NCBI GenBank assembly: GCA_035438625.1
Contig: DAORIS010000002.1
Location: forward strand, 34,832-98,831
Source: Minisyncoccota bacterium
GTDB taxonomy: Bacteria > Patescibacteriota > Minisyncoccia > Phycocordibacterales > DAORIS01
DNA length: 64,000 bases
Direction: 5' to 3'
A program made the position numbers and the translations under genes. Positions 16,557-47,504 of the stretch are shown in pieces. The notes under the pieces were generated by a model. That model made no database searches. It worked only from the letters and a program-made list of their open reading frames with translations, and was not told the origin of the DNA. The number at the start of each line of letters is the position of its first letter. Position 1 is the first letter of the stretch.

Positions 16557-16564
16557 CTTAATTG

Positions 16565-16636
16565 TGCCACCGGCAGGAATTGAACCTGCATCTAGGGCTT
16601 AGGAGTCCCTTGTTCTATCCGTTGAACTACGGCAGC
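16565..16636 (-). tRNA. tRNA-Arg (anticodon CCU)
   Basis: GCTGCCGTAGTTCAACGGATAGAAC..., anticodon loop CTCCTAA, ...GGTTCAATTCC..., acceptor CGGTGGCA. Confidence 0.75.
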
Positions 16637-17263
16637 ATTGAAATACACACGGATCTCTTCTATCAAACACATGATCAGCTTAAAATACTGACCACTTTTC
16701 GCTATCCTAACACGACACATGCCATAAGGTAACTTACCTAACTTTTTACCCTCAATAATCTCTGTTTCGTAAACTTGTGATTTTTTGAGACTTAAATACG
16801 ATGTCCAGAATTCAATAGCATTATTTTTGTCTATATCAGAATACAACCTAAGTGATATTTTCACAGATTCAGACTTTACTCCAATTTCATATAAACATTC
16901 TAGAAAAACTTTGATTAAACCTGGATCAGAATTTATCAGATTCAATTCTTTTTTATTGCCCTCTCCCCAATATATAGAAGCAAGTAGTAATAACTTATGA
17001 TTTATCGATAAAGTATCCTTAAAAAGTAGTTTTGCCTTTTGATGAGCAATTTTCCAATTTTTTTCTGCTGTTCTTTTACTTCCACCTTGTTTTTTGCGAA
17101 GGATATCCACGAATTCAGCATTAACACTGATATTCTTTATATGATGGAATATAGTGGTTTTACTTCTCCTAAGTTCTTGTGAAATTTCAGAGATACTGTG
17201 ACCTGTTTCACGTAAAAAATGAATCCTTTGTATTTCAAGTGGATTAAGTGGCACACCTGCCAT
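16592..17263 (-). CDS. AT-rich hypothetical helix-turn-helix protein (possible homing-endonuclease or mobile-element remnant). Its last 15 codons overlap tRNA-Arg.
   Basis: N-terminal HTH (GHSISEISQELRRSKTTIFHHIKN). LLLLASIYWGEGNKK is faintly LAGLIDADG-like. The region is visibly more AT-rich than the flanks. The C-terminus is translated from the tRNA body. Confidence 0.35.
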   Translation of the reverse strand: MAGVPLNPLEIQRIHFLRETGHSISEISQELRRSKTTIFHHIKNISVNAEFVDILRKKQGGSKRTAEKNWKIAHQKAKLLFKDTLSINHKLLLLASIYWGEGNKKELNLINSDPGLIKVFLECLYEIGVKSESVKISLRLYSDIDKNNAIEFWTSYLSLKKSQVYETEIIEGKKLGKLPYGMCRVRIAKSGQYFKLIMCLIEEIRVYFNAAVVQRIEQGTPKP

Positions 17264-22370: not shown

Positions 22371-24821
22371 CTATTCTTCAGTTTCCCCTTCGCTTCCAGT
22401 AGTATCTTCTTCTGTGTCAATAGCTTCCTCTGCCTGAATTGCTCGTGAACCACTTGAAAGTGAACTTGAGAGCGCTTGCACATCTGTGTTTTCAGGGTTT
22501 GTTGTAAGCAAGATGTCTGTAAGCATTCGAGCCTCTTCGTTTCTTCCTAGTTCCCTGTATGTAAGTGCCAAGAAATACTGCGCGTTTGCATACTGAGGAT
22601 TAATGATAAGTGCTCGCTCAAAATCACGTGATGCCCCCTCAAAATCATCTATGTTGTACTTAAGAATTCCAACCTGGAGATGTGCATCAGCATTTGTAGG
22701 AGCAGTGAGTGCACCAACTTCAGCAGCTTCGATTGCCTTTTCTATTGAATTCTCTTGGATGTGGAGCTGTGCCTTGAAGAAATATGCGTCTGTGTAATTT
22801 GCCTTGAGTGCAATTGCTTGGTCAGCATATTCGAATGCCTTAGAGACATTACCGTTATTCCTCTCAAGTTGCGCAAGCGCAAGCTTAATCAATGGATTAG
22901 ATGGGGAAAGCTTCTGTGCTCGATCATACGCAGCGAGTGCTTGATCATATGCACCTTCAACCTTATACGCCGCAAGGACTGAGTATGTGTCTCCTAATGA
23001 CAACCAGTTTACATAACTATCTTCATTAAGTGCAACTGCCCGTGATGCGATACCGGTAACTTGCTGCACAATTGCTTGTCCTTGTTCCTGGAGTGCCTGT
23101 TGTTGGCTCTGGCTAGCGTTTTGAGAACTTGAGACGAATGTTGAAAGCTGTTGCAAACCAACACTGATCAACTCTCGGTAATACGAATCCCTTTCATCGA
23201 ATTGAAGTGCTCGATTATATCGTGATGTTGCTTCTGGAACATTTCCCTGAGCGAGTGCAGTTGAAGCACGATTCACTTCATATCGAGCATACGCTTGTGT
23301 TGTGAAGAGATATCCAAGCATGATGATACCCAAAAGAAGGAGAACAAGTCCTGCAACAGAGGCAAACGCTGCTCGTGGATCAGAGAGGTATGAGTACGCA
23401 CGAGTTCGAACAATTCCCATCGCAAGAGCGACCGTGATAAGAAGCCCGAGAAAGACAAACAAATATGTGTACAGTACTAATCCAGGGTTGCTGAATAGGA
23501 AGATCAAGATGAGATATACGACGCTAAATGAAAGCACTGCACCGTGATTACGCTCATGTTCTTCTCCGACTGTTCCAAGTAATAACCTAAACATAAGGAT
23601 TGCAGCAAACGCAATGAGTGCGATCCACGCCAATAGTCCTGGGATACCGAGAGTTACAAGTGAACTTAAGACTGTGCTAAATCCAAATGAAAAATCTGAG
23701 CTCCAAAGAATTGTGTTGTTGACTTCAATTGGCTTGAATTGGTTCCATGCGACATTAAATTGTCCTGGGCCCACTCCAAACACCTTTCCTTCCTTAATAA
23801 CATTCCAACCAAGTTCAAGTGTTGCAAGTGGAGAAAGCTTTGCTTCAATGTGCGGTGCATTGAAATTATTCAAAAAGCCTAGTCCAGGAACGTTTGACGC
23901 GATTGAGAAGACACTTGCACGTCCTGAAATCAAAATCATTGCAAACGACACAAGCACGATAACAAGCGGAGCTGTTGGTATTTTTGTAATAAAACGAGAC
24001 ACAGGAGTAGCTGTTCCAGGAATCACCTCAGCAGCACGTTCTGCCATTTGCTGATTTGCCTGCCGTGTCATTTTAAGGAATGAGTACACGAAGATAAGAA
24101 CTGCTGAAACACCCACCAACCACCAAACAGTGTTTATGTTAACAACTGAGATAGCAAGAGCTGAAATAACGATCGCAGCCGTTGAGATAACTACCCACAG
24201 ACGCTTTCGCGCTAAGAACTGGTGGTATGCAAGTGAGAGCACAAGCAAGAAGCCCGCAAAGAGTCCGACATCTGGCCATGCACCAAGTGGAGATGAGAGG
24301 AGGTTTCCAAAAATTCCAAAGTTAAGTGTTGCAGGTCCCATCAAGAAACGAATAGTGTGGAAGAGGACAAGAATCGCACCACCGATCCATGTGGCAATAA
24401 ATACCGAGCGAACAGTTCGGAGGGTTGTAAAAAATCGAACTGTAGCAAGAAGGAAAATAAGTCCCGCAAACACATAAGCAGCAGAATCAACCGTTGCAAT
24501 ATCAATAATTGTTGATGCACGGAGCGCAACAAGTGCTGAACTGATTATGGTAATAAGGAACAGTACCACAACTGCAGTTAATACGTGTGTTCGAGGAAAT
24601 TCAAATGAACCGAGCTTAAGATCGCTAATAACAACTGATAATGCGAGAAACAACATCACAAGCAAGACCATGATTGGCTTACTTGCAAATAACATGAACG
24701 TTGAAGGAATAATGAAAAAGGGTAACGCTGCAATTAAAACAAGCAGTGCACCTCGCGAAATAAATGTAAGCATGATGTATAAGTATATAGTACAACCGCT
24801 AAAAAAAGCACAGCTCCCCAT
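22371..24821 (-). CDS. O-antigen-ligase/Wzy-like polytopic membrane domain fused to C-terminal TPR repeats and an acidic tail
   Basis: About 500 aa of TM helices, then repeated TPR-like AxxYxxA(L)xLxP units, ending in EEAIDTEEDTTGSEGETEE. Confidence 0.55.
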   Translation of the reverse strand: MGSCAFFSGCTIYLYIMLTFISRGALLVLIAALPFFIIPSTFMLFASKPIMVLLVMLFLALSVVISDLKLGSFEFPRTHVLTAVVVLFLITIISSALVALRASTIIDIATVDSAAYVFAGLIFLLATVRFFTTLRTVRSVFIATWIGGAILVLFHTIRFLMGPATLNFGIFGNLLSSPLGAWPDVGLFAGFLLVLSLAYHQFLARKRLWVVISTAAIVISALAISVVNINTVWWLVGVSAVLIFVYSFLKMTRQANQQMAERAAEVIPGTATPVSRFITKIPTAPLVIVLVSFAMILISGRASVFSIASNVPGLGFLNNFNAPHIEAKLSPLATLELGWNVIKEGKVFGVGPGQFNVAWNQFKPIEVNNTILWSSDFSFGFSTVLSSLVTLGIPGLLAWIALIAFAAILMFRLLLGTVGEEHERNHGAVLSFSVVYLILIFLFSNPGLVLYTYLFVFLGLLITVALAMGIVRTRAYSYLSDPRAAFASVAGLVLLLLGIIMLGYLFTTQAYARYEVNRASTALAQGNVPEATSRYNRALQFDERDSYYRELISVGLQQLSTFVSSSQNASQSQQQALQEQGQAIVQQVTGIASRAVALNEDSYVNWLSLGDTYSVLAAYKVEGAYDQALAAYDRAQKLSPSNPLIKLALAQLERNNGNVSKAFEYADQAIALKANYTDAYFFKAQLHIQENSIEKAIEAAEVGALTAPTNADAHLQVGILKYNIDDFEGASRDFERALIINPQYANAQYFLALTYRELGRNEEARMLTDILLTTNPENTDVQALSSSLSSGSRAIQAEEAIDTEEDTTGSEGETEE

Positions 24822-24835
24822 GTGGAGAGCTGTGG
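24801..24835 (-). terminator. Intrinsic terminator of rnpB
   Basis: On the minus strand, CACAGCUCUCCACAUGGGGAGCUGUG followed by UUUUUUU. Confidence 0.7.
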
Positions 24836-25203
24836 TGCACTGTAAGCCGAATTCTGTTCTAAGAGGTATTGCTACGTACTTAGAGATATATATATGTCTG
24901 GAGAATAGATCGCTCTATCCTTCTTGCGTCTCTCTATGCTCTTGCGCCTCGTACGAGACGTCGCAAGAACACAGCACGGACTTGCACTCAGGCAAGGATT
25001 TAGCCGTTTCATTCCCTTATTCAGTATTAGGGATTCACCCACAAGTGGGTGCCTCTGGCTTTCACCTCGGGCGTCACTGCTCGCACCTCGCGGATTACTC
25101 CGTGCAGGGGTTACCTGCTGCCTTTCTCCAGGCGGACCTGGGAGTGTTCGGACTTTCCTCACGATGTAGAAAATCTATATCGCGCATATACCCGTGCACA
25201 TAT
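24836..25203 (-). ncRNA. rnpB: RNase P RNA (bacterial type A-like)
   Basis: The minus strand carries the P4 signatures AGGAAAGUCCG (5' strand) and ACAGAAUUCGGCUUA (3' strand) about 300 nt apart. The region is GC-rich with no credible ORF, and a GUGCAC P1 pairing closes the ends. A terminator follows. Confidence 0.75.
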
Positions 25204-25230: not shown

Positions 25231-26982
25231 TCAATACTTACGGTGTACCCTCTTTTTTGGTGCTAATGGGAGTGCCCCGCCGGCAACAATCATTGATCCG
25301 ATGATAATCATGAGGTACATAAGAGCCATGTCTCGTGGTGTTCGTGTTTGTCCAAAGGCAGCGAAAGTGGAAGCGCCAGCACCTGAGCGGATAAGATTAT
25401 CTTCTAAGAAATCTTCTGTTTCAGCGATCCAGGGAAAAGTCTCCCAGGGAAGCAGGCCGTTTGGAGTCCATCCACTGTCCCAAATAACAATACCATCCAC
25501 ATTAAGCGCTTTTAACGTATCAAGTTGTAGTCGATAAAAATCAAGTGGTAACTGTTGTAGCGCCAATCCTCCCGCTGTCGATTCATGATACCTTGGCCAA
25601 ATAAATGGATACACCGGTTTACCATATCGCTCTGCAATAGCAACTGTATACTCGGCGTAATACAACCAATCTTGTTGACTATTGTTTGACGTATATAGAG
25701 ATGGAAAAATATAATCTACCGCATTTGCAATTGGTGCAAGAAAATCACTTGCAGCAACAACCGCTTCGTACGCTGCAGTAAATTGTGCAGCTTGAGAAAC
25801 CGCCCACGCATCACCATCTTGGAGTAATCCATAGTTAACAGCGTGCGTAAGCTCTGACAAAGGGATAATAGAGTAAATACCGACCTTTAAATCAGGTCGC
25901 TCGTCTCGTATCCACCCAATAACTCGCAAATATTTTTCTGTTGAACTTGCTACAGCCACCTCACTATGAAAGTTAATGTTTGCAGGCCAACTTTCGATAT
26001 CAGGAACAGCTACAGCATTTAACGGGACTGTTTGTGCCCACGCACGAGTTGCAACTTCACTTGGCTCACCCGGGTTAGTTGCAGACGCATTATCAAAGAA
26101 ATATCCTCCCCAACCTACATAAATCGGATTTACTGCTGCACTAAAGATTGTTGGTTTATCGGTATACCCACCTATCGCATCAAATATTTTAAATATAGTG
26201 TTGTAAACAGGATCTGGAGGAGCATTGTCGTTTGAATTATTTCGACCTCCACCACCTCCACCTCCACTCCTTCTACGCTTAACTGTAGTTGTCGCCGTAG
26301 AATTTGTTCCCGTGTTTTTTGCAAGCGTTTGATTAACTAAAGTTGCATAGGCAAGATTTAATGCCGATCTTGTTTGTGGTCCAATTGATCCAACTGGTTC
26401 AAGTCCTTTCGATAGCTGAAAACTTGCTACCGCCTGAGCGGTGATAGGGCCAAAAAATCCTGTTGGCGGTTCAGTCATAAAACCAAGCGCAACAAGCAAT
26501 TCCTGAAGAGCCGTTACCTCAGCACCCCGAGCTCCAATTGTTTGTGGAAGAGTAAATGTAAATGAAGGAATTATTGTTGTGCTGGTTGTAGCTGGACTAG
26601 TAGGAAGAACATTCTGTGGTGCTCCACACACAAACAATCTAGTTAGAGGACCAAAAAATCCAGTTGCAGGAGTTATATTGACTGCCATTTGAAAATTTTT
26701 CAAAGCTTGCTGGGTCTTAAGTCCAAACGATGTAGTCTCTTGTCCAGGAGAACCGAGACCGGTTTGAGAAATGACATAGCCGTTGGCATTTAAGAATTGT
26801 TGGAGTGCGCGGACATCTTCACCTTCTGAATCAACCCTTAAATCACGAGTATAGATACAGGTTGTGTTTGTTTGAGCATTACTTTCTTTGAAAATAAATG
26901 CATCGTGCGTTAGCGATAGCCCAAAAATCAATCCGCTAATAGTTACATAACACACCAATCTCAAAAACTTAAAATTATTCAT
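25231..26982 (-). CDS. Secreted protein with two peptidoglycan-binding (PG_binding_1-like) domains, a Gly-rich linker, a TIM-barrel-like glycoside-hydrolase domain and a C-terminal TM anchor
   Basis: Signal peptide. Two copies of the VRALQQFLNANGY...GLKTQQALKNFQ-type PG-binding repeat. A GGGGGGGR linker. A C-terminal domain of about 300 aa with a VDGIVIWDSGW box. The final hydrophobic segment is followed by KKRVHRKY. Confidence 0.5.
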   Translation of the reverse strand: MNNFKFLRLVCYVTISGLIFGLSLTHDAFIFKESNAQTNTTCIYTRDLRVDSEGEDVRALQQFLNANGYVISQTGLGSPGQETTSFGLKTQQALKNFQMAVNITPATGFFGPLTRLFVCGAPQNVLPTSPATTSTTIIPSFTFTLPQTIGARGAEVTALQELLVALGFMTEPPTGFFGPITAQAVASFQLSKGLEPVGSIGPQTRSALNLAYATLVNQTLAKNTGTNSTATTTVKRRRSGGGGGGGRNNSNDNAPPDPVYNTIFKIFDAIGGYTDKPTIFSAAVNPIYVGWGGYFFDNASATNPGEPSEVATRAWAQTVPLNAVAVPDIESWPANINFHSEVAVASSTEKYLRVIGWIRDERPDLKVGIYSIIPLSELTHAVNYGLLQDGDAWAVSQAAQFTAAYEAVVAASDFLAPIANAVDYIFPSLYTSNNSQQDWLYYAEYTVAIAERYGKPVYPFIWPRYHESTAGGLALQQLPLDFYRLQLDTLKALNVDGIVIWDSGWTPNGLLPWETFPWIAETEDFLEDNLIRSGAGASTFAAFGQTRTPRDMALMYLMIIIGSMIVAGGALPLAPKKRVHRKY

Positions 26983-29900
26983 TTGTTTCTTCTGCTACTG
27001 ACTGATTTTCTGCCTCTCCTGAGTCATTGCTTTGTGGAGACCTATTTGAGTCTACTTGCACCTCTTCAGTTATTTCTGTTGATACTTCTATAGATTCAAG
27101 TATATCCTCTTTTTCAACGTGCGATCCACCCACAACCTGTTCTTCACTGATGGGATCAATTGGGAGTGGAATTGGAGTAGGTGCCGGACCTGGATCGTCT
27201 ATTGGTTTAGCCCCACACTCTAATTCAGTCGTTGTCATTTTTCCATTTTTAATCTTCACACAATATGGCTCTCCTGTTACTTCATCGTATAACGTAATAC
27301 CTGTTGGGTTTTCTTGAGAGCCCACAGTAAACGTCTCGACAACTAATTTCTTTAAGGAAGTGAGGGTGTTCGCCATAAAACTTTCATATGAAATCGTTTC
27401 TAGTTGCTCATTGATTGTCTTAACTTTCAGGTCTAATTCTTGGATAGAGTTAATAATAAATGGAGTGAGATTTCCATACGCAACTGATTTATATCCAGTT
27501 TTTGAATCAGTTGAGACAAGCTCTGGGAATATCTTTTCTACTTCTTGAGCAATCAATCCAAACCGCTTTGTATCATCAGACTGAGAATTCCATTGGAATG
27601 AAACCGGGCGAAGTGCTGTGATACGTTCAAGTGATGTTAGTGGATCAATTGAAGCCACGTCTTTCTTTAATCGTTCGTCGGAAGTACATGTCCACGTTGT
27701 TGATGTTGGGTTGATTTCACAATACCCGTTTGTATCTTCAAATCGAACGGGAGCATCATCACTTGAAACATATACATGAAGTTTCTTTGCAGGAGAGGTT
27801 GTACCGATTCCTAGGGAACCAGCTGCAGTTATATTTAAGAGAGTATTCGAGGAACTATCTTGAATTTGAAAAAGATCAGCACTTTGTGCCGCAACACCTC
27901 TGATTATAATACCAATTCTACTATTCGTACTTGGAACAAATGTAACATTCCCAACTCCATTTCGAATATTTCCTCGTAGATCTGCATCTGGGCTAACAAC
28001 AAATGAAGTACCACTAACAAGAAAACTATACGCAGACCCGGTATTGATGTTGGTATTAAAAAACAAAGTTCCACTACTTCTTATGTCGTTGGTAATCAAC
28101 CTAGTATTTGCAGTAACTATGTCACCACTAATATTACCTCCTACAGTAAGAAGCGAGCCTGGTGTCGTAGTGCCAATTCCAACGTTCCCACTAACAATCA
28201 GTCCATTACTTGGCGCAGCGGTTACACCACCATATGTACCAATAGACACCCCTCCAACAACATCCAATGCTGACTTAGGAAAACCGGTCTTGAGACCGAG
28301 ACGAATGTCCATTCGATCGTTGTCGTTTACCCATAACACTGACCCAGTACTCGTCGATGAAGCACCGTATGGAAACATATGAATATACTGACCACTTGCA
28401 ATCGTTGTACCATTTCCATATCCTGTACCCAAAATACGGTTTGCGGTTCCATTTACAGCAACCTGAAGCCCGTATCCAGTATCAATTGCAATATCTCCTT
28501 GTAACACATTGAATCGAGAAGGATAAGTACCTCTGCTGGTAGTTCCAACTGCAACACGCACATCTCCCGCCACAGTATCGCTACCTGAGATTGTAATACC
28601 TCTACTAGTTGCACTTGTTCCACCCGGAACGACCAATGTTGCATACCAACCGTATGGAATAATTGTTCCGTCACCATATCCTGCCGTAAGATTCGTGCCT
28701 GTCACGGTACCCCCGAATGATCCGCTACTTGAAACCGTTAATGCTCCAGTTTGTGAAACGGTAAGTAAAGAGGTGCCTGTTGATGACGCAACCACTAACG
28801 GATTAGAGCCCGCTGATCCAACAATTGACAGCTTGGCGATTGGCGAAGTAGAACCAATACCGACGTTTCCTACAGAAGTTATTCTTAATTTTTCTCCTAT
28901 GGTATTTGAACCCCTTGTAGAAAAGGCCAGGTAAGAATCATTAGTTGATGCAGCTTCCCAAGCACCAGTCACCAGTCCAGTAGTAAAATTACTTCCTGCT
29001 GACCAACCGTAAAAACCAAGTGATGATCCTACGTTTGCTGCCGCTACCGCATTATTAGTTATTCCTAGTGCAGGTGCAATACCTGAGGAAGTTGTAGCTA
29101 TTGTTAAAGTAAATTGTGGAGAAGTTGTTCCAATCCCGACATTACCACTACTTCCTTGGAATCTCAGATACGGTGTACCACCCACTGTTGTTACAAAATC
29201 AACATTTCCACCTGTTGATCCATTACGTCCAGTAAAAAATTCAATATTTCCTGAATTGGTTGTTACATCCTGAGAAAATTTAATGTGAGCATTGTAGTAA
29301 GAGTTTTGAGCATAAAATTTTATAAACGATGAACTGTTATATGTAGGCTGTCCAAATCGGATATTTCCATTGTAAATATCAAATTTTTCCGCTGGAGTCG
29401 TTGTGCCAATTCCAATACTTCCGGACGCATTAATTACCGTAAGTGCCGTGCCAGCAGAATTTTGCCATTCTTGTAAAGTAGAACTTTGATTTGAAGCACC
29501 ACGAATAATTAATCCTTTAGTTGTGCTTGCTGTTGCTGTTACATGAAGTTGTGCCAATGGACTTGAGTTACCGATACCAACTAATCCTGAACGATCAATT
29601 ATTAACCGAGTAGTTGGGTTATATGTTGAGCCTGGCGTTAGTTCAGAATCAGTTCGTAGCTGTACATATCCATTATTAAAAAATAAATCTGATGCATATG
29701 TTGCTCGAGCAACAAATCCTGAAGAGTTATACTCTCCACCTTGCATTACAAGACCAATAGAATCACCTCCTGCACCAAGAAACATTCCCCCTCCCAAAGT
29801 GTTCGAACCATTGAAAAAACGAACACTGGTATAGCCTCCACCATCCACAGTAAGTGTATGTGTTGGTGTGTTAGTCCCCACCCCAACATTTCCACTCGCC

Positions 29901-30586
29901 CTCCAGACATCAGTTCCATTCGATGCCCAGTTTCCAACGGCAGCACCAGCTAGGAGGTTTCCTGCCCAGTACAAATTACCCCCATCGTTATAGAGAGAGT
30001 TTGAGGTATCAGAAGGGGGAGTAATTTCCGCAAGGACAACATACTGTGCCAAAGAGAGTAGCCCTGCAATTGATGAAGTAGCGGTGTCCGTAACTGAAAG
30101 CGCACGAGAGAAGTCAATGGCACCTATGTCATCTTGAAGGTCTGAGATGTCCCCATTGACATCACTGAACCGATCAGCCATATCTTCACGAAATGAATCG
30201 ATGCGCTTGTTCACACGATCAAGAGAGACATTCGGTTGAGCTCGGAGGAGTTCTCTCATACGAACATCGATTTGAGCAATCACTTCTTCACGGGTGATCC
30301 CTGGTACTGTCACTTCACGGATGGTTTGGACAGTGTGGGTATCATAGACATATTCTGTTGATCCCTGAGGATACACAATGATAGGGGCAGTTTGTGGAGT
30401 TGCAACGTATGCAAAAGACGACGGCCCTTTCATTTCACATGAACCGAGGGTGGTGCAGTATATTCCACCAATATAATTTCCAAATGAAAATGCACGTAAT
30501 TTTTCAACCGGAACCGCAGAAAGGAAGATAGTTGATACAGCTATTAATCCAAAGAAAAAAGCCGTAATTCGGAAGTACGATTTCAC
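26975..30586 (-). CDS. Giant (1203 aa) secreted tail-fibre-like surface protein with a C-terminal intramolecular-chaperone autoproteolytic domain (Peptidase_S74-like)
   Basis: Signal peptide. Seven dispersed G-N-V-G-I-G-T-x-x-P repeats (GNVGVGTNTP, GLVGIGNSSP, GSIGIGTTTP, GNVGIGTTSP, GNVGIGSTSP, GNVGIGTTTP, GSLGIGTTSP). A C-terminal SDERLKKDV...GLIAQEVEKIFPELV...YGNLTPFIINSIQEL block matches the self-cleaving chaperone of phage tail spikes and fibres. Confidence 0.6.
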   Translation of the reverse strand: MKSYFRITAFFFGLIAVSTIFLSAVPVEKLRAFSFGNYIGGIYCTTLGSCEMKGPSSFAYVATPQTAPIIVYPQGSTEYVYDTHTVQTIREVTVPGITREEVIAQIDVRMRELLRAQPNVSLDRVNKRIDSFREDMADRFSDVNGDISDLQDDIGAIDFSRALSVTDTATSSIAGLLSLAQYVVLAEITPPSDTSNSLYNDGGNLYWAGNLLAGAAVGNWASNGTDVWRASGNVGVGTNTPTHTLTVDGGGYTSVRFFNGSNTLGGGMFLGAGGDSIGLVMQGGEYNSSGFVARATYASDLFFNNGYVQLRTDSELTPGSTYNPTTRLIIDRSGLVGIGNSSPLAQLHVTATASTTKGLIIRGASNQSSTLQEWQNSAGTALTVINASGSIGIGTTTPAEKFDIYNGNIRFGQPTYNSSSFIKFYAQNSYYNAHIKFSQDVTTNSGNIEFFTGRNGSTGGNVDFVTTVGGTPYLRFQGSSGNVGIGTTSPQFTLTIATTSSGIAPALGITNNAVAAANVGSSLGFYGWSAGSNFTTGLVTGAWEAASTNDSYLAFSTRGSNTIGEKLRITSVGNVGIGSTSPIAKLSIVGSAGSNPLVVASSTGTSLLTVSQTGALTVSSSGSFGGTVTGTNLTAGYGDGTIIPYGWYATLVVPGGTSATSRGITISGSDTVAGDVRVAVGTTSRGTYPSRFNVLQGDIAIDTGYGLQVAVNGTANRILGTGYGNGTTIASGQYIHMFPYGASSTSTGSVLWVNDNDRMDIRLGLKTGFPKSALDVVGGVSIGTYGGVTAAPSNGLIVSGNVGIGTTTPGSLLTVGGNISGDIVTANTRLITNDIRSSGTLFFNTNINTGSAYSFLVSGTSFVVSPDADLRGNIRNGVGNVTFVPSTNSRIGIIIRGVAAQSADLFQIQDSSSNTLLNITAAGSLGIGTTSPAKKLHVYVSSDDAPVRFEDTNGYCEINPTSTTWTCTSDERLKKDVASIDPLTSLERITALRPVSFQWNSQSDDTKRFGLIAQEVEKIFPELVSTDSKTGYKSVAYGNLTPFIINSIQELDLKVKTINEQLETISYESFMANTLTSLKKLVVETFTVGSQENPTGITLYDEVTGEPYCVKIKNGKMTTTELECGAKPIDDPGPAPTPIPLPIDPISEEQVVGGSHVEKEDILESIEVSTEITEEVQVDSNRSPQSNDSGEAENQSVAEETNE

Positions 30587-45230: not shown

Positions 45231-47504
45231 TTATTGCTTTGGAATAATACTTTTTGTTCCGGCGTTAATTGCGCCTTCATATGAAGTAATTTCTTGAACG
45301 ATCTGGGTGTTACCCGCTGTTGCTGCTTGAGTCTTAAGTTCAGCCAAAAGTTCGAGTGCGCCCTTTCTGTTACCAACCTCAAGTCGTGCCGCAGCAAGAA
45401 GAATGTGAGATGTTGGAGAAATCCTCTCTTGTTTCTTCAGTTCTGCAACCTGTGCTTCAAGTACCGGAAGTACTCGTGCTGTGTGTCCTGTTATAAGAAG
45501 TGCTTGTACTACTCCACTGTTTTCCATGACTTGTGGGTATTTTTCAATAGTATCGAAGGCGAGTTGATCTCTATTGCTATAAAGCGCTGTAACTACATAC
45601 AACCCTTCAATAGAAATATTTTTCTCTTGAACACTGACTGCATACTCAGCTCGCTTAAATGCTTCTTCAAATTTATCCTGGGTAAGCAAGAAAGATATTT
45701 CATCAGAGATAAACATCTGCTTCTTTGGAGACAATTCCTGTGCTTTTCGGATTAATTCCATTGCCTTATCAATTTCTCCTGTCCTTGAGTAACTTGTTGA
45801 AAGAATGTAGTACGCACGTGGATCATTTGGAGACTCTTCAATTTGATCCTGACCCGCCAAACGAGAGTCATTCAAGAAAGCCATTCCAACTTCATTTCCA
45901 GCACCAGCTTGCGAAGCAACATTTACAGCATTTGTAATGTATTGCTCTCGAATTTCTTGGTTTCCAAACGAATCATATGAAAGCGCCTTATCGAAATACA
46001 TTTTGGTGGCTTCGAAATTTGCCATTTGCTCTGCCTGGGTCTTGGGCGGCTGGGCCATAATGCGTAGCGCAGAGAGAAGTGACCTATTTGCTGCATACGG
46101 CTTATATGTACCGGCGTATAACGTATACGGAACAACAACAAGTGAAAGTACTGCGCATACAAGCATGACTTGCGTCTTGAGTACTGAATCACCTGCTTCT
46201 GCGTTTCCCTTTTTAGAAACAACATCTCGAGGAACAATTTGTGAATGGAAGAATGCAAGTATTCCAAAGAACAAAATATAACTTGCCAAGTTATCAAACA
46301 CGAACAAGTTATGGATAAAGTAACCAACGAGTATTCCAGTGAATACTGATTTCTGTAGAATTGAGAGGCGATCGCCTGGTATTTTCCAGAGCGTGTACCC
46401 AAGCATTGCAATTAGTGCGATATAGGCCAAGAAACCAACAATTCCTGTTGTGACCAACCACTCGATAAACATATTATGTGAGCGGTCAAACCATTGTTCG
46501 TGAGAATAAATTGCAGGATCGTAGTAGGTAGAAAAGATATAGTTAAAACTTTCCTGTCCCCAACCAAAGATTGGTCGATCCTTTACTCCCTCAAATGCCA
46601 TTTTCCATAGTGTTGGACGGGCCTGAGTTTCAGCGTTTGTGAGTGTTACCTCTGTAAATCTCCTAAGAATTGAAACGTTCTGCACAACGCCCGTATCCTT
46701 TAACAAGAAAAACAATCCGACAAGTGCAGTGACGCCAATAACCATTCCAGCTGCAATTTTCTTCAAGAGCGGATGATTACGTTCATAGATTGCGAGAAAA
46801 ATTCCAGCAACAAACGAGCCACCTAATATACCAAGTACTGTTCCTCGAGTACCGGTAAAGAATACACCTGCAATAAACGCAATGATTCCAACAGCATAGG
46901 CTGCAATACGCCATTTTTCTTGTCGTACTTTTTTATCAGACACTGCAATCAGTAACAATATGCCAGCGTGAATGAAAAAGTATGCACCAACATATGTTGA
47001 GTTTCCGAGCATAACATTAATACGTGGGGCAACACCATTACTTAGAAGTCCTCCAATTGCGTCAGACAATCCAACTAAGAGCATGATTGCGCTTATTGAA
47101 AGCGATGTAACCGCATACCACAACCACTCTTTTGTTGTACGAAAAACATTTGAAGCGATGAATGCAAAGGCACCGAGGTGCAAGAGTGCAATGTACCCTT
47201 CCATTCGCTCATAGTTACTCCAGAAACTCTTATATGGATTTTCACTAAAGATATTTGCAACACCTACAATCACCACAAAAACCAAAAGTGACCACATAAG
47301 ACCAGACGCCTTTGGCCTAAAACGTGCGTCCCTCCACGCAAGAAACAAATATGCCACCAATGCAATTTCTACAAGCGCCCTAAATGCAAAGTTTTTTCCA
47401 GCGATATATGGGAAAAACATTTCATTTGAAACATATAGCGGTACTGCCAGCACCAGTCCCAAACAGCCGATAACAATATATTGTAGTGTTTTATTCAAAT
47501 TCAT
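45231..47504 (-). CDS. Second O-antigen-ligase/Wzy-like membrane domain fused to TPR repeats (paralogue of 22371-24821)
   Basis: Same architecture as the first copy: polytopic N-terminus, then about 300 aa of TPR-like repeats. Confidence 0.55.
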   Translation of the reverse strand: MNLNKTLQYIVIGCLGLVLAVPLYVSNEMFFPYIAGKNFAFRALVEIALVAYLFLAWRDARFRPKASGLMWSLLVFVVIVGVANIFSENPYKSFWSNYERMEGYIALLHLGAFAFIASNVFRTTKEWLWYAVTSLSISAIMLLVGLSDAIGGLLSNGVAPRINVMLGNSTYVGAYFFIHAGILLLIAVSDKKVRQEKWRIAAYAVGIIAFIAGVFFTGTRGTVLGILGGSFVAGIFLAIYERNHPLLKKIAAGMVIGVTALVGLFFLLKDTGVVQNVSILRRFTEVTLTNAETQARPTLWKMAFEGVKDRPIFGWGQESFNYIFSTYYDPAIYSHEQWFDRSHNMFIEWLVTTGIVGFLAYIALIAMLGYTLWKIPGDRLSILQKSVFTGILVGYFIHNLFVFDNLASYILFFGILAFFHSQIVPRDVVSKKGNAEAGDSVLKTQVMLVCAVLSLVVVPYTLYAGTYKPYAANRSLLSALRIMAQPPKTQAEQMANFEATKMYFDKALSYDSFGNQEIREQYITNAVNVASQAGAGNEVGMAFLNDSRLAGQDQIEESPNDPRAYYILSTSYSRTGEIDKAMELIRKAQELSPKKQMFISDEISFLLTQDKFEEAFKRAEYAVSVQEKNISIEGLYVVTALYSNRDQLAFDTIEKYPQVMENSGVVQALLITGHTARVLPVLEAQVAELKKQERISPTSHILLAAARLEVGNRKGALELLAELKTQAATAGNTQIVQEITSYEGAINAGTKSIIPKQ

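Follow-up and report, generated by a model that had tools for sequence, protein, structure and literature searches.

A probable Peptidase_S74-folded surface fibre encoded at an old chromosomal site in a patescibacterium

Introduction

The mosaic adhesive trimer (MAT) fibres of Bdellovibrio bacteriovorus are prey-binding adhesins (Caulton et al. 2024 Nat Microbiol, PMC10769870), and for one of them, Bd3182 of the Peptidase_S74 (S74) subgroup, self-cleavage has been demonstrated at S782 (PMC10769870). A Ser-Lys S74 domain also ends the triple beta-helix of phage fibres and tailspikes, among them the K1F/NF endosialidase (3GW6), the T5 L-shaped fibre pb1 (4UW8) and the S16 long tail fibre (6F45), while MyRF (ICA domain, 7DC3) provides a precedent for the S74 device in a non-viral organism. 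In this study, we describe a gene of comparable type in a 64,000-nucleotide (nt) stretch of DNA, here called the window, from a member of the Minisyncoccota, i.e. of the Patescibacteria or candidate phyla radiation (CPR) (assembly GCA_035438625.1, contig DAORIS010000002.1, positions 34,832 to 98,831). The gene is a single open reading frame (ORF) of 1203 amino acids (aa) with a GTG start at 26975..30586, an extent already given correctly by the initial annotation made from the sequence, to which the strand (minus) is now added. We regard it as likely that this gene specifies a surface fibre of the patescibacterial cell that is inherited with the chromosome, exported and folded as a beta-helical homotrimer, and that works like a phage tail or MAT fibre.

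Cellular S74 fibres are a known kind of protein of which thousands exist, and the product of this gene has already been named by automatic annotation: an identical protein is present at NCBI as HRH26059.1 ("tail fiber domain-containing protein", Candidatus Paceibacterota), encoded on a 112,933-bp contig. The finding is consequently far more ordinary than the initial annotation supposed, the more so as the capping-loop motif of its shaft had been published and cellular S74 fibres had been characterised in 2024. A literature search returned nothing linking S74 fibres with Patescibacteria/CPR, the host-attachment work found being centred on type IV pili, and Patescibacteria are missing from the published list of MAT-bearing lineages (Caulton 2024, PMC10769870). 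Compared with the literature found, the presence and form of S74 fibres in Patescibacteria are new, and a CPR-restricted module that follows the S74 domain constitutes a real architectural difference. Little has been established about the means by which ultra-small CPR cells find and keep hold of their hosts, and surface proteins of this kind, which are large, resemble phage fibres, diverge quickly and occupy conserved chromosomal sites, are candidate determinants of host specificity. The MAT-type strategy, in which a cell is equipped with a phage-style receptor-binding fibre, would be extended from diderm predators to monoderm-like episymbionts, and a lineage-restricted appendage on the S74 chaperone is defined. 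The protein is no surprise at the level of kind; it is a lead on how symbionts may grip their hosts.

Results and Discussion

The Peptidase_S74 chaperone/autoprotease domain

Pfam Peptidase_S74 (PF13884) matches the fibre protein at aa 969–1024 with E 4.4e-17 and a score of 62.6 bits (cutoff 22), over model positions 1–57 of 58, and the domain starts with an S-D-E-R-L-K box at aa 969–974 that holds the Ser969/Lys974 dyad. Across an alignment of 27 relatives that share a long C-terminal tail, Ser969, Lys974 and Gly1010 do not vary; of the top 120 homologues, 82 bear S74, and nearly every one of these shows the pattern S-[DS]-x-x-x-K. In an AlphaFold2 monomer model of aa 900–1203 the predicted local distance difference test score (pLDDT) exceeds 90 over the S74 core (aa ~969–1059). 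The best Foldseek match of the modelled C-terminus is the MyRF ICA (7DC3, E 2.6e-5, root mean square deviation (rmsd) 1.9 Å over 118 columns; 7DC3 matches overall, TM(target) 0.64–0.68 and rmsd 1.8–2.6 Å), and the endosialidase intramolecular chaperone 3GW6 is matched at probability 0.96. As the four independent lines (profile score, residue invariance, model confidence and fold match) agree, the S74 assignment is sound, and the protein belongs to the Peptidase_S74 or IMC/ICA family on account of its profile, Ser-Lys box and fold.

The S74-type chaperone/autoprotease domain with an S-D-x-R-L-K box, as initially proposed, is thus borne out, although its proposed position at the very C-terminus is not, since about 140 residues (aa 1060–1203) follow it. 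Likewise, the Pfam check suggested for the C-terminus does find PF13884, at the position given above, while the last 153 aa have no match at E<=10; an NCBIfam scan of the protein yielded just one sub-threshold chance match. Autocleavage by the Ser969/Lys974 dyad is predicted from the motif, its invariance and the fold. The tip that directly precedes Ser969 is nearly identical in the homologues P0002, P0006, P0007, P0015 and P0016.

Capping-loop motifs and the fibre shaft

The motif G-x-[VIL]-G-[VI]-G-x3-P occurs in exactly seven copies, at aa 232, 334, 389, 481, 573, 800 and 923, in agreement with the seven dispersed G-N-V-G-I-G-T-x-x-P copies reported by the initial annotation. It has no other occurrence in the six-frame translation of the 64-kb window, so that seven copies in one protein are far beyond chance; its extended form in the shaft is G-x-V-G-I-G-x3-P-x3-L. 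In their supplementary alignment, Caulton et al. (2024) give the capping loops NVGIGATAPTAKLE, NVGIGATSPSAKLQ and LVGIGTATPAAPLH for Bdellovibrio MAT fibres and a single one, RVGINTDRPDEALV, for mouse MyRF (PMC10769870). The loops GNVGIGTTSPQFTL, GNVGIGSTSPIAKL and GLVGIGNSSPLAQL of the protein described here match these published MAT and MyRF loops, and the consensus V-G-G/N-pi-x-x-P-x-x-x-L that defines the MAT capping loop is present in seven copies. Judged from these sequences, the repeat is the "capping loop" of S74-associated triple beta-helices. Its earlier designation as a hallmark of viral tail fibres is thereby made more precise, the same loop being found in MAT fibres and MyRF.

Additional searches place the shaft among fibres of both cellular and phage origin. 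In a PDB sequence search with the whole protein, the best match was the Bdellovibrio MAT fibre Bd2133 (8OND, E 2.4e-4), and the phage S16 long tail fibre (6F45), matched in its S74 region, came second. Many PHROGs tail-fibre families cover aa 379–604 and 775–1065, and 403 phage records match the protein at 26–33% identity with coverage of at most 32% of its length. Capping loops 5 and 6 are separated by a 227-aa motif-free gap (aa ~590–790, about 28217..28819), for which neither PHROGs nor Pfam gave a match and a PDB sequence search (aa ~587–799) gave chance matches only. This gap may represent a knob or ligand-binding domain inserted into the shaft.

Comparison with MAT fibres and other trimeric fibres

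The resemblance to MAT fibres extends over the whole layout: both are encoded by cellular, non-phage genes, are about 1000 aa long and have an N-terminal export signal (predicted in the present case), a G/T/S-rich shaft with the same capping loop (NVGIGATSPSAKLQ and LVGIGTATPAAPLH in MAT fibres, GNVGIGSTSPIAKL and GLVGIGNSSPLAQL here) and a C-terminal S74 domain with SDxxxK. They differ in that Bdellovibrio is a diderm predator, whereas the source of the window is a monoderm-like patescibacterium; to our knowledge, Patescibacteria have no outer membrane. A second difference concerns the region after the signal, which in all 21 MATs is a beta-rich domain of ~130 aa, whereas the corresponding region here looks partly helical and is without a Pfam match (the MAT domain being compared by description only). 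The N-terminal domain is probably different from that of MAT fibres, and whether the protein would count as a MAT fibre sensu stricto hinges on this domain. Thirdly, the 140-aa extension that follows the chaperone (helices, a two-cysteine module and an acidic tail) goes unmentioned for MAT fibres in the available part of the source.

As is predicted for the protein described here, the phage fibres and tailspikes named above end a triple beta-helix in a Ser-Lys S74 domain, but the present protein has an export segment, found in only one of 45 phage-type relatives, and no virion context, and even its phage matches remain at or below 33% identity over at most 32% of its length. The chains of phage-type relatives stop about 82–124 aa beyond the Ser. 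The MyRF ICA, in spite of being the best structural match and sharing one capping loop, belongs to a eukaryotic membrane-bound transcription factor that has no fibre shaft and no extracellular role, and in which cleavage frees the N-terminal part for nuclear import. Trimeric autotransporter adhesins (YadA-like) are also long trimeric surface fibres; however, the protein lacks a C-terminal beta-barrel translocator or YadA anchor, and its trimerisation would be driven by S74. A trimeric autotransporter was accordingly rejected, Pfam detecting S74 only and no translocator domain. Certain homologues possess YadA_head repeats (P0004, P0093 and, weakly, L002:859-5316), and one, P0101, is named "trimeric autotransporter adhesin" by one source.

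N-terminal export segment and N-proximal region

The N-terminus (MKSYFRITAFFFGLIAVSTIFLSAVP) contains two basic residues followed by a 19-residue hydrophobic core that starts at residue 7 (maximum 19-residue Kyte-Doolittle mean 2.25), and thus resembles a Sec signal. It would be either a Sec signal peptide, with possible cleavage after LSA24, or an uncleaved signal anchor. Canonical AxA signal peptides are present in homologues. Of the signal peptide claimed by the initial annotation, the hydrophobic Sec-like export segment was retrieved by the Kyte-Doolittle analysis; the cleaved form is a prediction, to which an anchor is the alternative. The six cysteines of the protein form three short-range pairs (44/50, 956/967 and 1109/1124), as fits an extracytoplasmic protein.

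The N-terminal 231 aa (including aa 26–230) have no Pfam match, even at E<=10. Segments resembling aa 26–197 were recognised by eye in the CPR homologues P0013, P0015, P0017 and P0085, and this part is presumed to be the cell-proximal base of the fibre. It is followed by a block, LYNxxGxLYWAGNxxxGxxxGxWxxxGTxVWR, which is present in 12 of the top 120 homologues, always directly before the first GNVG[IV]GT, and which by its sequence distribution appears as the marker of a patescibacterial subfamily, common to the long-tail cellular class outlined below.

Homologues fall into two architectures

More than 2,300 homologues of the protein were scored, and the architectures of the 82 S74-bearing proteins among the top 120 were compared. 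A short class (45/82) ends 82–144 aa after the nucleophile Ser, and a single member of it has an N-terminal hydrophobic segment. A long class (37/82) has 176–629 aa after this residue, and 23 of its 37 members have such a segment, while most of those without one are visibly truncated at the N-terminus. A long tail after the Ser is thereby associated with an export segment (23/37 versus 1/45, Fisher p 8.5e-10). Members of the short class look like virion fibres from their sequence features, while the protein described here, with 235 aa after the Ser, belongs to the long-tail, cellular class.

Genomic context, synteny and the prophage question

The window contains rnpB (24827..25200) and six tRNAs, and the 30 ORFs scanned besides the fibre gene are all of housekeeping or cell-envelope type: FtsZ, thioredoxin reductase, TsaD, a class I tRNA synthetase, PrsW, LepA, MurJ, a TPR protein, a DAO oxidoreductase, GatB, Obg, MYG1, an AI-2E transporter, iPGM, enolase, a PLD-type enzyme, SecA, MurB, an O-antigen-ligase-like protein and glycosyltransferases. 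Phage structural, capsid, terminase, portal, tail tube and integrase families were not detected among these 30 ORFs, and the earlier statements that the window holds no other phage structural gene, integrase or terminase and that the neighbours are rnpB and housekeeping genes are both in accordance with the scan. Base composition and GC content are uniform across the 64 kb, and no direct repeat of at least 40 bp, a possible att site, is present in the window.

On the minus strand, the gene order of the window is GatB – DAO – fibre – peptidoglycan (PG)-binding glycosidase – rnpB – TPR – MurJ – LepA. A related genome (locus L002) displays the order GatB – 1485-aa fibre-like protein – rnpB – TPR – MurJ – S74 fibre P0002 – LepA. 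While LepA is 68% identical between the two, the fibres in the GatB–rnpB slot align in pieces only, at about 28% identity, which indicates that the fibre site is old and maintained and that its sequence turns over quickly. The slot protein of the related genome (L002:859-5316) has weak YadA_head matches and the two-cysteine module but no recognisable S74, and the second fibre (P0002, L002:10001-14815), located between MurJ and LepA, is of the S74 type and 1604 aa long. The different fibres in these slots suggest that fibre genes come and go at fixed chromosomal sites. Furthermore, the homologues P0013 and P0062 (loci L001 and L003) have housekeeping neighbours too, which at L001 are purine-biosynthesis genes and at L003, on a 779-kb scaffold, rpsL-rpsG-fusA. 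The syntenic slot, together with the three examined homologues in housekeeping contexts, argues for a cellular surface fibre and not a part of a prophage, as the initial annotation had favoured, and this claim is now well supported.

The alternative, that a prophage late-region remnant (tail fibre and lysin) integrated by rnpB and decayed into a leftover that forms no functional organelle, appears very improbable. It would account for the matches to many PHROGs tail-fibre families, for the 8-nt overlap of the fibre and glycosidase genes and for the position beside rnpB, small stable-RNA genes of this type being able to serve as integration sites. The downstream protein also matches PHROGs endolysin families through PG_binding_1, but these matches are due only to this widespread PG-binding domain. 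A decayed remnant is, moreover, at odds with an unbroken ORF of 1203 aa that has retained its catalytic residues, with an export segment that is rare in phage-type relatives and with a fibre directly upstream of rnpB also at 68% LepA identity, i.e. an old and maintained arrangement. The missing virion and integrase families, the uniform GC content and the lack of att-like repeats described above, as well as the absence of the two-cysteine module from viral contigs (see below), count against it too. A prophage origin was therefore rejected on the context given by the 30 scanned ORFs of the window, on synteny, on composition and on the absence of att-like repeats. The term "domesticated" used in the initial annotation presupposes transfer from phage to cell, which is not established by phage fibres that are, at nearest, 26–33% identical over at most 32% of the protein.

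Two further candidates were dismissed. A contractile injection system or tailocin fibre finds no sheath, tube or baseplate family among the scanned ORFs, and a diversity-generating retroelement target is contradicted by the lack of a template/variable repeat pair (no direct repeat of at least 40 bp) and of a reverse transcriptase among these ORFs.

A patescibacterial extension after the chaperone

The extension consists, in this order, of two long helices (aa 1037–1087), the two-cysteine module (aa ~1085–1126) and the acidic tail. In the model the module forms a three-stranded sheet with pLDDT of about 80–85, and its Cys1109 is invariant in the alignment of 27 relatives. The tail (aa 1127–1203) has a net charge of -17 and block pLDDT values of about 46–55 (disordered), and contains neither a transmembrane (TM) segment nor a known sorting signal. 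There is a loose resemblance between the module and the Cys loop in front of the predicted cleavage site. The initial annotation was silent on this extension, as it was on the overlapping downstream glycosidase gene.

A profile search of 1.84 billion proteins with the module returned 1650 cluster representatives at E<=1e-3, 725 of them at <=1e-10. In these relatives a median of about 104 residues separates the module from the C-terminus; tails of the same kind follow it, in which a TM segment was never seen. Among 56 carriers that begin with Met and measure 250–2,600 aa, 35 have Peptidase_S74, 17 a bacterial surface Ig-like domain and one Peptidase_G2, the other intramolecular-chaperone family. 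A scan of one genome per GTDB species, with a five-sequence alignment as query, recovered 41 confirmed loci, of which 39 are titled as Patescibacteria lineages (L009-L049 set: Saccharibacteria-labelled, Paceibacterota, Parcubacteria, Nomura-, Kaiser-, Niyogi-, Yonath- and Taylorbacteria) and two only as "uncultured bacterium"; S74 directly precedes the module in 19 of the 34 loci with enough upstream ORF. The module is absent from the 2.9 million viral contigs of IMG/VR that were scanned, the GTDB and IMG/VR scans both using short peptide patterns that register fairly close variants only. The two-cysteine mini-domain appears, within these scans, as a Patescibacteria-restricted appendage, located mostly on S74 fibres; every genome titled with a lineage was patescibacterial.

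A cut at Ser969 would free this module along with the chaperone. It is conceivable, though improbable, that S74 folds the protein without any release, such that the extension is a functional distal end or a wall-attachment element and the mature protein is full length. The conservation of the extension across the 1650 representatives is consistent with such an arrangement, as is the presence of the module on proteins without detectable S74 (P0019, P0109 and L002:859-5316), which implies a role independent of the chaperone. Conversely, the Ser/Lys dyad is invariant in 27 of 27 long-tail relatives, arguing that catalysis is retained; the Cys loop just before Ser969 is highly conserved, as expected of an exposed mature tip; and neither a TM segment nor a known sorting signal follows the module.

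Proposed assembly and function of the fibre

For the fibre with release, which we favour, the following sequence of events is proposed. The N-terminal hydrophobic segment would carry the chain through the Sec system, after which three C-terminal S74 domains would associate and nucleate the triple beta-helix from its C-terminal end, a folding step modelled on the established mechanism of the endosialidase, T5 pb1 and Bd3182 chaperones. The seven G-N-V-G-I-G-T-x-x-P-x-x-x-L capping loops would punctuate the shaft. The Ser969/Lys974 dyad would then cut at Ser969, freeing a 235-residue acidic fragment (chaperone, helices, two-cysteine mini-domain and tail) and leaving the conserved tip with its Cys loop, NGYCEINPTSTTWTCT, exposed. 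Once mature, the fibre would measure about 940 residues, would stay attached to the cell via its N-terminal part and would recognise and hold another cell or surface, which for an episymbiont would be its host. By analogy with the Bdellovibrio MAT fibres, host adhesion is the most likely role; the much faster divergence of the fibre compared with its neighbours (28% versus 68%) is as expected of a partner-recognition protein.

Several points weigh against this interpretation. Trimerisation, cleavage, surface display and binding are all predicted steps, and a host-holding role presupposes, as an assumption, that the source organism is episymbiotic. The monomer model of aa 900–1203 as a whole is of moderate confidence (mean pLDDT 72.7, predicted template modelling score (pTM) 0.46). 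At the N-terminus, the beta-rich domain of MAT fibres was not detected (by Pfam, and against a published description of that domain), and the export segment has no clean AxA site, which bears on whether the fibre is anchored or released. At the other end, neither phage nor MAT fibres have anything equivalent to the post-chaperone extension, and should this part have a function of its own, the logic by which the chaperone is discarded may be incomplete.

The protein may also be a surface fibre that uses S74 folding without being a host-recognition adhesin, for instance an envelope or spacer element, a biofilm or substrate attachment fibre, or a phage decoy. We consider this unlikely, given that the characterised cellular relatives, the MAT fibres, are prey-binding adhesins and that fast divergence, combined with several different fibres per related genome, is typical of partner recognition. 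Nonetheless, the present data identify no ligand, S74 folds functionally diverse proteins (endosialidase, tail fibres, MyRF), and the neighbouring genes serve the cell's own wall and envelope (MurJ, the PG-binding glycosidase, MurB and the O-antigen-ligase-like protein).

The downstream PG-binding glycosidase

The ATG of the downstream gene overlaps the stop codon of the fibre gene by 8 nt (ATGAATAA), and between the two there is no terminator-like site stronger than those within coding sequence; the genes are probably co-transcribed. The downstream product, of 583 aa, starts with a signal-like segment, continues with two PG_binding_1 domains (E 3.3e-25), a Gly-rich linker and a 275-aa domain, and ends in a C-terminal TM anchor. 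The 275-aa domain was modelled as a TIM barrel (pLDDT 93.6, pTM 0.91), for which Foldseek ranks GH56 hyaluronidases best (bee venom 1FCQ, E 1.5e-8; human Hyal1 2PE4, E 4.8e-7), and the Pfam GH56 match is weak (E 0.023). An alignment of homologues of this domain contains an invariant Glu in DIE[HS]WP, which we take to correspond to the catalytic D-x-E-x-W motif of GH56. The enzyme might serve as an autolysin, or as a glycan hydrolase that attacks a partner cell.

The family is rare and unnamed, with 40 homologues in 5.8 billion proteins. The three homologues whose surroundings were examined are located in lipopolysaccharide/exopolysaccharide or other housekeeping contexts without adjoining fibres, indicating that the pairing of fibre and glycosidase is local to this genome; a conserved two-gene system of fibre and GH56-like glycosidase was on these grounds rejected as a general rule. 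A more speculative proposal, which we deem doubtful, is that the released part of the patescibacterial S74 fibre (two-cysteine mini-domain and acidic tail) has a second function and that it forms, with the fast-evolving fibre slot upstream of rnpB and the translationally coupled glycosidase, a phage-like "bind and breach" module by which the host range of the episymbiont is determined. Such a second function could be capping of the tip until contact, tethering to the wall or action as a secreted factor.

Feature coordinates and other observations in the window

Table 1. Positions in the window of the segments of the fibre gene and of the adjoining glycosidase gene.
Feature	Position	Strand	Basis or remarks
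N-terminal export segment, aa 1–25	30512..30586	-	K2 and R6 n-region, then 19-residue hydrophobic core
N-proximal region, aa 26–197	29996..30511	-	Cys44/Cys50, then predicted helical charged stretch; no family match
LYNxxGxLYWAGN block, aa 198–231	29894..29995	-	Runs into first capping loop
Fibre shaft, aa 232–945	27752..29893	-	G/T/S-rich; seven capping-loop motifs
Predicted mature tip PVRFEDTNGYCEINPTSTTWTCT, aa 946–968	27683..27751	-	Cys956/Cys967 loop; stops directly before Ser969
Peptidase_S74 chaperone/autoprotease core, aa 969–1059	27410..27682	-	Ser969 and Lys974 in S-D-E-R-L-K
Helical linker, aa 1060–1084	27335..27409	-	DSSP on model: H138-165, H168-188 of fragment
Two-cysteine beta mini-domain (TVGSQENPTGITLYDEVTGEPYCVKIKNGKMTTTELEC), aa 1085–1126	27209..27334	-	Three-stranded sheet in model; Cys1109 invariant
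Disordered acidic Pro/Glu/Ser-rich tail, aa 1127–1203, with stop codon	26975..27208	-	Composition; low pLDDT
Overlapping downstream glycosidase gene, 583 aa	25231..26982	-	ATG overlaps fibre stop by 8 nt

A strong intrinsic-terminator-like hairpin (11 bp, 7 GC, followed by a T-run) is located at the 3' end of rnpB (24809..24834, minus strand). No comparable site is present between GatB and rnpB, and DAO, fibre, glycosidase and rnpB could accordingly be one read-through unit. Between rnpB and MurJ, both the window (22371..24821, minus strand) and the related genome (L002:5788-8211) encode a protein of ~810 aa with C-terminal TPR repeats, the N-terminal ~600 aa of which have no family match.

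A 223-aa ORF at 16592..17263 (minus strand), the 3' end of which overlaps tRNA-Arg (16564..16636), has an HTH_38 match only (E 3e-6) and could be what is left of a transposase or regulator gene, or an ORF called in error. Finally, a surface polysaccharide cluster at 45231..~51700 encodes a 757-aa Wzy_C (O-antigen-ligase-like) protein with TPR repeats, a GT4 glycosyltransferase, a Polysacc_synt flippase and GT2 glycosyltransferases, and the plus-strand ORFs that follow, to ~57700, may extend it. This cluster is another envelope-decoration locus close to the fibre gene.

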